Origin: Pocillopora damicornis
Lineage: Eukaryota
Assembly: GCF_003704095.1 (NCBI RefSeq)
Contig: NW_020846176.1
Location: 62,001-126,000, forward strand
DNA length: 64,000 bases
Reading direction: 5' to 3'
A model generated the notes under the pieces. The model made no database searches. It was not told the DNA's origin and was given only the letters and a program-made list of their open reading frames with translations. Below are positions 9,497-15,400 of this stretch, in pieces. The position numbers and the translations under genes were made by a program. Position 1 is the first letter of the stretch. Each line of letters begins with the position of its first letter.

Positions 9497-12400
9497 CTAC
9501 TCTTTTGCATCATCACCCTCTATATCTTCCACTTTTGTACCATCTTTCTCCACTAAGGAATAAACAAGAAACAATAGGGTAAAAACTTGTGTATAAGCTG
9601 CACTCATGTATCAGCTGCACTTGTGTATCAGCAGCACTTGCGTATCAGCTGCACTTGTGTATAAGCTGCACCCACAACTTTCAAGCATGATTTTGAAAAA
9701 AGAAAAAAACTTCACAAAGGCACTCTTGTTAAAAAACATTGGTCATTTGTTCACAGAAGTTCACAATAAACTTGAGGAAATCTAATGCTGTGTATTTGCA
9801 GCCACATTAATAAGTTAATCAACTCTGAAAATACCTTTTAAAAGCTATTCTTTAATCGATTTCCCTACTCCCCGTGACTTACAACAGTTGTCTTCATTGC
9901 TAAAGCACACAGCTCACATAGGAACGATGGAATTTAAATGAAAATAAAATGCAGGAGAATAATACAAAATGTTTGCTTGGTAACTGCACAGGAAGTCTGG
10001 ACACTAGAGACAAATAATAGTCTCATGCATAAGCTGCACCCACAATTTTTGGCCCAAAACTTAAGCAAAAAGGTGCGGCTTATACACGAGTCTTTACAGT
10101 AGAGAGTAAAAAAAATCGGTCTTTTCTTGAGCCTAAGCCTAATGGTTTAACCCTAAACCCTAAGCAAGAAGCCACAGGAAGTTTGCTTCACCACCAAATG
10201 GGATACTTATTTATTGGAAATCTAACTCTGAAGAGTGACTGGATTCTAGCTTCTAATTTCTCCTCACAGTATCACCCTTCAATCAAATGTAAAGGTCACA
10301 ATAATAAAGGAAAGGATTACCAACTGAAGAAGCTCTTGATTGTTGAACAAATTTGATGGAAATTGGGGTTACTTTGTCAAACAAGTTATTTGGTTTGTGA
10401 TCAGATTTCTCAAAGTAATTTTTCAAACTTTCAGCGCATACAGGAAAAAAAACATCATATTTTCATATTTTCTTCCACACTAGATTGTATATTTAAATGA
10501 GGGTGGGTATTTCAAGTCAAAGCAAAGAGGAAGAATACAAGATGTCATTTGACCTCCATGCAGCGCATTTCAGTTTGTTGAATGAGGCACAGATCTGATA
10601 CATTTAACTTTTCACCATAGGATCATTTATTGGCTGATTGGGAACAATCTGCAATCTGCAATCTGCAAGTCTGGAAAATCTTAACCCTTCACAACGCTCA
10701 AAATGTGTTGTAAACACTGGATTGCTGCACCTACCCTCTGGGCACTTCAAAAGTACAGTGTGCTTCAAGGCAGGCAAATTAGTGGATGAATTGTACTCCA
10801 TATATTTTTCCTTAGGACAGGAATAAGAACAAGTTGACAAAAAAATCATAAAAGACTTACTTTCTGTATCAGAAGTCCACAGAGTCAAATTGTCACGTAG
10901 AAGCTGCATTATCAAAGTGCTGTCTTTGTACGAGTCTTCACTCAGGCTATCCAGATCACTGATGGCATTGTCAAAGGCCTCCTTCGCAATATTACAGGCT
11001 TTTTTTGGGTCATCATTGATTTCATAATGAAATACAGAGAAATTTAAGAACAAACCCAAACGTATTGGGCATGTTGCTGCAAGATTATCCTTTGCGATTT
11101 CAACTGCTGCATCATAGGCGTTCAAAGCACTTTTTTTCGCCTGATCTTTCTTTTCACCTTCAGCTATTTCAGCTAGATATCTGAAATAGTCACCCTTCCT
11201 GCAAGATAAAGAACATATACCTTTTCATTTAATCAGAGAAAATAAAAAAATCGAAGTATGTTACAGGTTCGAGGTTTCCAATAAAACTATGCAGCAAAAA
11301 ATTACAGATTAATTCACCAAAAAGTTGACATGAAAGTTGAATTGCTTCTCCCTGTAAGCTATGTAGACTATATACTTAACATGTAACTCACATTTTATGA
11401 AAGAAAACCCTAGCCTCATTATCTTGGGAGTTAGGAATGAGGTCCTTTTCCAAGAGACTAAGAATTTCATCACAGATGCTTTGAAGTTCGCCTTCAACTG
11501 TTTCCTTGTATTTTTTTAAAGTCTCGACCTTGCCTTGATCTTTTCCGCTTTCTTTTCCACTGTCTTTTCCTTTTTGCTCCAAGGAAGATATGATGCGCCA
11601 TGCTGCTCTTCTAGCCCCGATCACATTTTTATATGCAACAGACAGTAGGTTGCGCTCCTCAACAGTCATTTCCATCCCACTTGAATTTTTGGCCACTAAC
11701 TTCATGAATTCTGCCATTTCTGAATTATGAAAAAGAAGTTTTTCATTAAGAAATGCAGTAGCAGGAAAATCAGAGCCTGAAACTGCAGCCAACTAGTTGA
11801 TTGCAATTTGACATCTTGACAATGATCTTCATGCAAATATACATATTAGTACTCAAGAAGTGAAAAGTCCATAATCCTTTGTAAACACTTGTACATACTT
11901 GGCCTTGATCACTAAGGACAAATATGACCCTAACATCAGTTTGCATAATCTCCATACTGTTCTCTAGATATTTCCTTAAGTGCTAACAAGGAGAATTTGT
12001 TTAAAAATCAAGAGCTTTTTTAGTTCGTGATCATTTCCTCTTTTCTCATGATCTTAAGGTTACTTCCCACTTTCAGAGGCTGAAAAAATCAATTTTTCTT
12101 TTATTTGAGTTAACTGGATTCAAACATTTCCAAAACAAAAGATTTCTGAAATCTTTAAAAGCAACCGAGAAATTTAGAAAAATGTATTTTCAACTGAAAG
12201 TTAAAAACAGGAAGGTGTCATGATCTCCGACCTGGGGAATTTTTGCAGCAACTGCTCATCTTGGGGCTAATTTTTCATGTTATTTCCATATCTTGTTTAC
12301 ATCATGCACTTTAAAAATTCACATGTGAAAGCTCTTTGCTTATGAGGAGATCTTTGCTCATGCAAAAATCTAAAGCAGAAGTAAGTCCTTGGTAAAAAAA

Positions 12401-15400
12401 AAAGAAAAGGAAAAAAAAAAAAACAGGCCCAAGAGAAGAAAGAGTACCATTCGGTCAAGAGAAGGAAAAGATTCCTTTAGGACAGCTACAAGTACTGGTA
12501 GAGCTCCATGCTAGCATCCAGATTTCAAACAAAGAAGTTGCTGTCAAACCAAAAATTTGCCATCTATAATGTTAAAAATGAGGTTTCCTTTCATTTATGC
12601 AAGTACCAACCTTGATACAAAACATTACAAATTGCCACAAATCATAAATTGAAAGCTGTCTATTCATTGTCTTGCTCCTCAACAAATTTTGCAGTTTTTC
12701 CATTTTTGTTGCACATATTGCCTTTGCCTTTGCCTTTGGCAACTTTGCTCATTATTGTGTGGTCCTCCTCAGTGCTCTACTGAGCAATCAAGATATTGAA
12801 AAAAAAAAGTTTCTGCAATGGGTGACTTTTCCTGGGAAATCTTGACCCTTTGTCTTTGACGCAAGGAGGTCCCACTGTCCCATTGGTTTGCGGTTTCAGA
12901 AGACAGGATAATCTCCTGGCATAACGCGAGTTGTTTGCAATCCTTTTTGAGCTGAAATCTGGCATTTGATTTTGGGAGGAATACAACCACTTTGAGCAAA
13001 TTTGTAAGGTATATGGATTTGACCAATTTTCAACAAATTTCACCTGGAATAATGACAAACGAAACTGTGTTGGGAAATTTTGATAATTGAGACAACACAC
13101 CTTGCATATTTTTTAGCTACTCCAACTTTAGATGCTGATATCTAGACAACTTATCAGAATATCGAAAAAAACCCGCCTTACTTTCGTTGACTGATGCCTT
13201 GTTAATAAGACTGTGCAGCAATTTTGCTCGTGCTGTGGCATCCAATACTCAATAAATTCAATAGAAGAACCTTAAGTCATTTCACAACTTACCAGCTCCT
13301 GACACTTCCTTAGAATAAATGTTGCTCAAATCATATTTTTTATTGTAAACTGAATTTATATTTTACTTTCTTCTGATGTATGGTTTGCTGGGATTTTAGT
13401 GAAACTAGTTTGTGCAATAATTTTTTCCTAAAGAACACCTGCAAAGGTGGGAAGTAACCTCAATGTGTGATTCAGGGTTGATATTGAAAGGAGGAATAAA
13501 ATGCTAGCCATGTTTTGAGGTCCAAGATATTTCATTGAAAATTTACTTTTTAAGTACTTTACTTTGAGCTAAAAATTAAGTAAAAACCTAGATTTCTTTA
13601 GCCACCAAATTGTTCTGAATGGGGCTGAAAACAAAATTGTTTCATTGCACAGTGCTCCAAGCTTACAAAGTCACCCTTCTGGCAATCAAAATCAGAAACT
13701 ATGATCAGAAATTACCCTAATTTCCGTTCATTTACCCACACTTCAGATTACCCACATCAGTCAATTACGAGAAAAAAATTTCAACAGATTACCCACACTG
13801 GCAGATAAACCACACCCAAAAACAAAAGAAAATCATTGACTCACACAAATCTGTTGACATAAAATCTTTAGTGAGCAGTTAATAAATTTTCACACTTTTT
13901 GTCTTTGCTATTTCATTGAAAATGATACCACCTGAAAAATCTGTTCCCAACAAAAAATCAATATCTTGAGATCAACTGTGTCGGAGAAATCACTTGAAAC
14001 AGGAAAATACTCTTTAACTCAAGGCAGTGCAAGCTAAGAAAATTTCACCAAAGCATCTAATATTCTGTCATGTCATCAATTATACAGTGCCACGAAACAA
14101 ACAAGTCGGCATCATTTTCTGTGTGAATTGCTCCGAAGCCAGCTTTTTCACAGTTAAATTCTTTTATTTTCAAGTTCACTTCCCGTGTAAGTGAGAATTG
14201 TTTTTTGACCTTAACAAAGAAACAAGCTGTGAAATTGACAAGACAAGAAAGTAAGAGTATAAACAATATAAAAGCTTTGTTATCAAGTCTCTTATAATAA
14301 TGAGCAATCTGTGCGAAATAAATGAGTTATTACACAGGTTTTTTGAAGAGTATCTTTAGTGGATCTTATCATCTCTGTTTTTTTTTCTGCTTATAGTTTT
14401 ATATCTAAACCAGAAGCTTGAAAATTATTGTATAACCCACACCCTCCTGTAACCCACACCAATGAATGTTTGTGGAAAAATTAACAGATTACCTGCGGGT
14501 AGTTGGTTCAGGTGACAGTAGCCAGCAATTGGTTTGGAAGGTCCACATGATACCTCAAGACTTCACAATTTCACAACCAATAAGAAGGAACTAATCAGGG
14601 ATGTAGATAATAGCCAGAAGCCGGGAAAATTACCCAGCTGTGAACACAATTTTTCCGGCTGTGAAGCACTACTTCTTTCTCCAAAATGTTTTTAAATATT
14701 GTCAAAAGATTGTTATTTATTTATTTCATTTGTTTACACCTTCAAATCTAGGTATAGTGTGCCAAAGGCGTGCTAGAGTGGGCCTTCGGTCTGAATACCC
14801 ACCTATCATTGCAAGATTCCCGCCTGTTAAAAACTTTAGCTACATCCCTGCTAAATACTAATATTTTAATGCAATTATACATTTCACCTTAACAGGGGAC
14901 TGGTCATACAGTAATTTACAGTATCACCTGGGAGAGAGGGGAAGGTGGAGGGTCAGAGGATTTTTTCCTAAGTCATAATAAAATTTACCTGATCCCCTAT
15001 AAAGCACTTTACTACTTCAATAATCTCCCCTCATTGGCCATTATAATTCTAATGATCACCTCTTCTTTGGTGGTTATGTTCAACTACCAACATCAAAAAT
15101 CCATGCTGATAATTCCCCATATGCAACCGAATTTGAAGCACAAAATTTTGAAATTAGGCAAATCACCAAGTTTCTTTTATAGTTTTACATCTTAAGAGCT
15201 TGTTCAAATGAAATTTTAGCATTAGTTTTCAGAACTTGGGGTCGTATGAGATCACAACCGAAAAACAAACTCTAAAAAGATATCAGTACAGTTACAATTA
15301 GAAGGGGTCCTCTCAAGTAACTTTGTGCTCCAAGAAGAAGCTGTTTCATTTTTTGAGCACCAATAAAACCATAAAGTCAAATTTTGAATAGCATTAAAAC

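Follow-up and report, generated by a model that had tools for sequence, protein, structure and literature searches.

In the tunicate Ciona intestinalis, transposon copies that lie in introns acquire methylation passively where the gene is methylated, and other copies are methylation-free (PMC3827831, citing earlier work). In cnidarians, single transposons are all-or-none, either unmethylated or hypermethylated, methylation is greater in highly expressed genes, and intergenic DNA transposons are undermethylated in Nematostella; the same report concludes that transposons, young ones especially, are targeted independently of genes (PMC8857917). In Nematostella, chromatin linked to transcription guides the restoration of methylation in the germ line, and methylation silences intragenic transposons (PMC13345969), and the housekeeping genes of corals are poor in CpG dinucleotides (PMC4378018). 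Analysed here is a 64,000-nucleotide stretch of the genome of the coral Pocillopora damicornis (contig NW_020846176.1, positions 62,001–126,000 of the forward strand; hereafter the window), which holds two copies of one DNA transposon, copy 1 in an intron of a 14-3-3 gene and copy 2 between two other genes. Comparison of these copies with each other and with their relatives across the genome shows a CpG-specific loss that tracks place rather than age or lineage. Very probably, this old, CpG-rich transposon lost most of its CpGs only in CpG-poor host DNA, where it would have been methylated as a passenger of gene bodies, and was essentially unmethylated elsewhere.

The transposon and its two copies in the window

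The family was collected by two DNA searches of the genome (212 and 220 candidates, the best 40 scored in each) and one terminal-motif search (92 matches), and 100 stretches of at most 10 kb each were taken for analysis. Its consensus, built from 33 near-complete copies with both window copies excluded, is 1,454 bp long, contains 77 CpGs at an observed-to-expected ratio (o/e) of 1.3, and has GG..CC ends and a perfect 17-bp terminal inverted repeat (TIR); no credible open reading frame (ORF) is present in it. The TTAA target is exact for 36 of the 66 left ends and 41 of the 59 right ends; the others are mostly one change off. The TTAA target, the GG..CC ends and the TIR mark the element as a non-coding, Kolobok-type DNA transposon.

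Inserted on the plus strand, ~340 bp from the acceptor of 14-3-3 intron 1, is copy 1 (12058..13459), a non-autonomous, CpG-decayed member of the family flanked by TTAA (12054–12057) and TCAA (13460–13463). It keeps 7 of 69 consensus CpGs; 24 have become TG, 27 CA and 2 TA (53 of 69 deaminated). Copy 2 (53963..55302, plus strand; flanks TTAA at 53959–53962, and TTGA) belongs to subfamily B, lacks two short internal segments that copy 1 has, and is CpG-kept, with 46 of 64 CpGs retained and 11 deaminated (Fisher p = 3e-12 for deaminated sites against copy 1). It lies between a seven-transmembrane (7tm) receptor gene (RNA contigs 50931–51986) and the poly(A) end (56279) of a LEA/apolipoprotein-like gene. 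No RNA joint spans copy 2 among the 15 joints listed of 59, and low-depth contigs from RNA runs do cover it.

A preliminary description of the window had reported that six CpGs of copy 2 have all changed in copy 1 and that such loss recurs along the element. The quoted strings stand at 54341–54397 in copy 2 and 12494–12550 in copy 1, where the six sites read TA, TG, CA, CA, TG and TG, and over the full alignment 41 of 57 alignable copy 2 CpGs are TG, CA or TA in copy 1 (6 kept, 10 otherwise changed); in the opposite direction, a single copy 1 CpG is deaminated in copy 2. The contrast drawn there between loss in the intron and retention between genes is real, but neither side of it is total, as copy 1 still has its seven CpGs and copy 2 has lost 18 of 64. 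The two copies are indeed the same transposon at the level of the family, but their source variants differ slightly (subfamily B alleles at 15 of 17 sites in copy 2 and 4 of 16 in copy 1).

Non-CpG mismatches relative to the consensus number 97 of 1,099 in copy 1 (0.088) and 114 of 1,079 in copy 2 (0.106; p = 0.19), or 0.094 for copy 2 against its own subfamily, so copy 1 is not the older of the two. The higher non-CpG divergence in copy 1 that the preliminary description had named as the mark of a merely older insertion is absent both from this pair and from the 96 copies described below. With correction for saturation, the hazard of CpG transition is 17 times the non-CpG C/G transition rate in copy 1 and 1.2 times in copy 2.

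Two classes of copies across the family

Removal of 23 pieces with fewer than 12 scorable CpG sites, and of 2 tandem duplicates, from the 121 pieces found left 96 copies, in which CpG transitions per base are bimodal: 82 copies lie at 0–0.145, 14 at 0.276–0.461 and none between. For the 58 copies with at least 40 sites the empty gap is 0.145–0.366, and 9 copies scored later with the same consensus fall in the same modes (1 decayed and 8 kept, one duplicate of locus L105 included), giving 15 decayed and 90 kept copies among 105 scorable. Pooled, 100 of 747 CpGs are retained in decayed copies and 2,840 of 3,736 in kept copies, at non-CpG divergences of 0.091 and 0.085, respectively. The saturation-corrected CpG transition hazard is 0.86 in the decayed class and 0.09 in the kept class, or 11 and 1.4 times the non-CpG C/G transition rate, the latter figure being pooled from 79 kept copies with three divergent pieces omitted. 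The 1.4-fold ratio is significant (p = 9e-11) and, if all of it reflects methylation, equals 3.7% of the decayed-class excess, so the methylation accumulated by kept copies in their lifetime would be, at most, some 4% of the gene-body dose. In a simple model with two states, a copy would fall in the empty gap after spending roughly 10–45% of its residence methylated, so mixed on/off histories are rare in the sampled copies. The sample includes no young copy, its lowest non-CpG divergence being 0.052.

The decayed class could instead consist of insertions that are older, or of descendants of a source copy already depleted in CpG. Median non-CpG divergence is slightly higher in decayed than in kept copies (0.089 versus 0.082, p = 0.096), and a CpG-masked tree contains one supported decayed pair, L072 and L081. 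That pair, however, has kept copies in the same subfamily, copy 1 is the less diverged of the window copies, and the choice between TG and CA agrees among decayed copies at 936 of 1,811 shared sites (52%), which is at chance. The tree, of 65 copies, resembles a star, with a terminal length of 5.80 against 0.36 internally, and the decayed copies form no clade in it. Subfamily B, itself weak, contains 2 decayed and 9 kept copies, copy 2 among the latter, so the contrast between classes repeats inside a subfamily. An older or CpG-poor source was rejected on the divergence, TG/CA agreement, tree and subfamily data, and is scarcely credible. By these comparisons the decayed copies lost their CpGs independently, and the alignments show a burst of near-equal age that left at least 200 candidate loci.

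5-Methylcytosine (5mC) deaminates to T, and only changes in the germ lineage become fixed. The preliminary description had taken the pattern in copy 1 for the signature of this process, and had proposed an alignment to a family consensus in which CpG and non-CpG changes are counted apart. Counted in this way, the excess falls at CpG in copy 1 and in the decayed class, and the changes are CpG-specific and strand-symmetric, as would be expected of 5mC deamination: transition rates in decayed copies are 0.395 at CpG, 0.100 at CpA, 0.077 at CpC and 0.059 at CpT, TG and CA products number 286 and 254, and A/T transitions and transversions show no difference between the classes (p = 0.88 and 0.40). 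A methylation-independent, regional process, such as transcription-associated damage or local drift in base composition, might also remove CpGs from expressed genes, and a slight rise of non-CpG C/G transitions in decayed copies is in its favour. Such a process is highly improbable given that the excess is ~11-fold at CpG, at most 1.5-fold at CpA and nil at CpC and CpT, that the products are strand-symmetric, down to the 24 TG and 27 CA of copy 1, and that the LEA-like gene is strongly transcribed yet undepleted, so transcription strength by itself does not cause CpG loss.

Sequence-targeted methylation irrespective of position does not describe the family, 90 of 105 copies keeping their CpGs at a ratio of 1.4. 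Fungal repeat-induced point mutation (RIP) is a CpA-biased C-to-T change in all duplicated copies; it was rejected because the bias here is at CpG, not CpA, and only 15 of 105 copies are affected.

Host DNA around decayed and kept copies

Flanks of 1 kb, free of family sequence, could be scored for 88 of the 96 copies. Of the 14 decayed copies, 11 are CpG-poor (o/e < 0.5) on both sides, compared with 2 of the 74 kept ones (p = 8e-10); every decayed copy has a CpG-poor flank on one side or both, and 66 of the 74 kept copies have none. Besides L078, described below, the kept copies at L105, L099, L071, L114, L133, L137 and L195 are CpG-poor on one side or more.

Two decayed copies, copy 1 and L097 (in a G-alpha gene), are each bordered on either side by consecutive exons, Pfam-matched or spliced. 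The host of copy 1 lies on the minus strand. Its coding exon 1 (16838..16901, 64 nt, ATG at 16901, GT donor) joins in frame to exon 2 (11391..11719, PF00244 positions 12–115) across intron 1 (11720..16837), the GT donor and the AG acceptor before 11719 having been checked in the sequence, and further downstream is exon 3 (10862..11198, ends approximate, PF00244 positions 116–223). The first 0.9 kb of intron 1 has an o/e of 1.32, the remainder being CpG-poor (0.32 for 13460–15900). Upstream of the ATG is an undepleted region (16902..18300, o/e 0.97) that is likely to be the unmethylated promoter.

Exon-like, same-strand ORFs flank a further seven decayed copies on both sides, so at least 9 of the 15 lie between exon-like ORFs of one gene; the decayed class is located mainly among exons of conserved genes, mostly of the housekeeping kind. 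We take these seven hosts to be PAK, SCYL2, PWP2, WBP2, a zinc-finger gene, an ACP6-like phosphatase and one unnamed gene; Pfam is insensitive on single exons (of 143 ORFs near decayed copies, 7 matched), and most gene names there are putative assignments from the translations. Three more decayed copies are inferred to be intronic, the adjacent gene (an SH3 protein, an activin-receptor-like kinase and a galactose-3-O-sulfotransferase) being without its 5′ part. Near the kept copies (37 loci, 148 ORFs) are ankyrin, CUB/EGF, fibrinogen, kelch, homeobox and VWA exons. One of these copies, at L100, retains 29 of 30 CpGs in CpG-rich DNA with ankyrin exons on both sides, and is likely to occupy an intron of an unmethylated gene.

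At L110:4495-5535 (G000:C386), a copy keeps 6 of 9 CpGs at the end touching a CpG-rich flank, itself 5′ of a galactose-3-O-sulfotransferase exon, and 2 of 40 elsewhere (p = 1.5e-4), a switch inside one copy such as a positional domain predicts. Some loci (L080, L092 and L123) are CpG-poor over the whole 10 kb. In the window, the bodies of RPL6 (minus strand) and coproporphyrinogen oxidase (CPOX, plus strand), at 19000..29500, have o/e values of 0.16 and 0.14, respectively, and contain zero copies of the family, so the CpG-poor domain tracks genes and not the element. The preliminary description had held that host-gene context, not transposon identity, is decisive, and position does predict CpG loss where lineage does not; the variable, however, is the CpG-poor gene body rather than intronic as opposed to intergenic placement, which supports 'methylated gene body', not 'intron', as the probable rule.

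In the explanation we favour, copies would land in the transcribed bodies of constitutive genes, and 5mC would be laid along those bodies in the germ lineage whatever the inserted sequence. Its deamination to T would leave TG or CA at former CpGs, and each locus would hold its on or off methylation state through most of the residence of the copy. Alternatively, recognition might fall on the element itself, with small RNAs acting on the nascent host transcript as one possible means, and methylation above the gene background would follow only in a well-transcribed gene, possibly with spread to the flanks. Consistent with this, some decayed copies lie in short CpG-poor patches (~4 kb at L070), methylation silences intragenic transposons in Nematostella (PMC13345969), and methylation is commoner on intronic repeats than on the non-repeat DNA of introns (odds ratio 1.76–2.19), for which independent targeting has been argued (PMC8857917). 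Transcription-gated targeting is nevertheless unlikely, given CpG-poor bodies without the element (RPL6 and CPOX), depletion that spans 10-kb loci, a boundary that cuts through the L110 copy rather than falling at the element ends, and an undecayed copy in a transcribed intron, at L078. Where passive cover and transcription-gated targeting both act, sequence alone cannot separate them.

Several points weigh against gene-body cover as the cause of the loss. Sampling is biased to long, well-matching copies (the best 40 of about 210–225 candidates per search), the class cut-off of 0.2 was chosen once the gap was visible, and the rise of non-CpG C/G transitions in decayed copies (0.081 versus 0.064, p = 0.008, mainly at CpA) concerns sites outside CpG. 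Genic status was assigned for 12 of the 15 decayed copies, for 3 of these only indirectly, and kept copies were sampled at 37 loci with 4 ORFs each. Two kept copies lie in CpG-poor settings. Within an intron of a patatin gene, the copy at L078:4350-5675 (G000:C3095:172249-173574) keeps 55 of 69 CpGs (p = 4e-24 against the decayed-class rate) between flanks with o/e of 0.27 and 0.24, and the intron is confirmed by a spliced RNA contig that skips 1,816 bases across the copy with minus-strand GT-AG ends. The second, L105, adjoins an assembly N gap; it was downgraded as a clean exception owing to this gap and to a duplicated 3′ end with flanks on another contig.

The patatin gene becomes CpG-rich ~1 kb further downstream of L078, and the copy may therefore be a domain edge, a self-protecting CpG island or a late cut-and-paste arrival. 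No close sibling is found in the best 40 candidates scored (top full-length match 80%). The copy is present in three other samples, genomic-type contigs of which (X1, X6 and X8) cross an element junction, and no joint skipping the element occurs among those listed for them (there are 24 more); recent re-insertion is not supported as the reason for this exception. Considered as a possible proxy for present-day methylation, CpG transitions make up 3 of the 18 variants listed at the L078 flanks and 10 of the 32 listed around copy 2 (with 31 and 139 further variants, respectively, and contigs of other copies piling on the element).

A broader reading is possible but doubtful: old CpG-rich families might constitute a palaeo-methylome of corals that can be read from sequence, each copy being an identical reporter, this family never having been targeted as such, and a few copies, such as L078, resisting as intragenic CpG islands or marking a domain edge. 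On that reading, the all-or-none outcome would mean that domains held their state through ~9% neutral divergence.

Neighbouring features and comparison with known systems

Across 1–30 kb of the window CpG o/e is mostly 0.1–0.5, with CpG-rich gaps near 5–7, 16–18 and 23 kb, and across 30–64 kb it is about 0.7–1.3. The CpG-poor half contains 14-3-3, RPL6 and CPOX, the bodies of which have o/e values of 0.14–0.32, the promoter side and first 0.9 kb of intron of 14-3-3 being spared (0.97–1.32). In the CpG-rich half are a Kv channel gene and two 7tm receptor genes (the Kv and 7tm genes at 1.06–1.26) and the LEA/apolipoprotein-like gene. This pattern fits what would be expected of invertebrate gene-body methylation, in which constitutive gene bodies only are covered and the promoter or 5′ end is spared, with one intronic exception elsewhere. 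Of the 24 sequencing runs listed, none is annotated as a bisulfite or methyl-capture library. RPL6 and CPOX are head-to-head over a short CpG-rich stretch (23022–24273) that is likely to be their bidirectional promoter. Adjoining copy 2 on the left is a single-exon 7tm receptor ORF (50973..52016, minus strand, o/e 1.26), and on its right is the spliced LEA/apolipoprotein-like repeat gene (56279..59013, minus strand, o/e 0.87), which has 40-aa tandem repeats and, from two runs, RNA contigs of very high depth.

Window positions 1–599 are a diverged, same-strand duplicate (77–82%) of 8998–9187 and 11170–11611, ~11 kb away, covering 14-3-3 exon 2 with nearby intron and downstream sequence, and are likely to be a partial pseudogene or paralog. 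An intact single-exon ORF of ~530 aa (4810–6510, minus strand) has no Pfam match; its nearest atlas cluster is mostly cnidarian (score 0.93), with weaker leads (0.78) to Cry endotoxin N domains, and we presume a resemblance to a cnidarian pore-forming toxin-like gene. Beside it, in CpG-poor DNA, is a broken reverse-transcriptase remnant (3567–4720, plus strand, Pfam RVT_1) resembling a long interspersed nuclear element (LINE). Two further, smaller families of repeats in the window offer too few CpGs, whatever the context, to act as controls.

The termini of piggyBac elements are CC..GG; a piggyBac assignment was rejected because the present element ends GG..CC and is not pyrimidine-first. By definition, Kolobok elements have a TTAA target site, 5′-RR..YY-3′ termini and TIRs, and the termini separate them from piggyBac (PMC9587614). 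The family resembles Kolobok non-autonomous transposons in all three features. A DDD/E transposase (plus KolX) would be expected in a Kolobok element or in a partner with matching ends; this family has no coding capacity of its own, and the search for an autonomous partner yielded none. Taking PF20700 as a marker of Kolobok transposases, we found no family ends at the 12 best PF20700 loci or in 10 wider stretches around PF20700 matches. One such match, strong and to the transposase, is an open 700-aa frame at L182 (G000:C3984:243808-244815), possibly an intact DNA transposon of a different family. At L107:1776-8235 (G000:C1653), two left element ends face each other 6.4 kb apart without a long ORF between them, a possible composite unit, and at L080:3898-6152 a decayed copy has its 3′ 300 bp tandemly repeated several times. 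L105:1-5372 and L160:1-5400 comprise the 3′ end of a WD40 gene, presumably POC1-like, and an internally deleted element, duplicated on another contig (84–92% identical).

As in Ciona, intronic copies in methylated genes appear to go with their domain and other copies are free, here judged from CpG loss. Unlike in Ciona, a tunicate in which methylation was assayed directly, the record in this coral consists of mutations fixed across 105 members of a single family, integrated over germ-line history. On/off transposons, methylated intronic copies in highly expressed genes and CpG-poor housekeeping genes are likewise features of cnidarian methylomes (PMC8857917, PMC13345969, PMC8857923, PMC4378018). 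In contrast to the targeting conclusion of PMC8857917, the kept copies here would in their lifetime have received no more than ~4% of the gene-body dose, a ceiling that leaves scant room for a long targeted phase. The principle is already known from Ciona and fits the cnidarian methylomes, and no new mechanism is revealed. What is new is a count controlled by family, an upper limit for targeted methylation in this family and a named exception (L078); an equivalent family-level test in a coral was not found in the literature searched, in which subscription journals are sparsely covered. The results suggest that on/off gene-body states in the coral germ line are stable over the long term, and bear on claims of heritable environmental change in methylation. 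They also bear on the debate over whether cnidarian methylation targets transposons (PMC8857917) or, as in the Ciona model, covers those that lie in methylated genes, a covering to which PMC13345969 assigns a silencing role.

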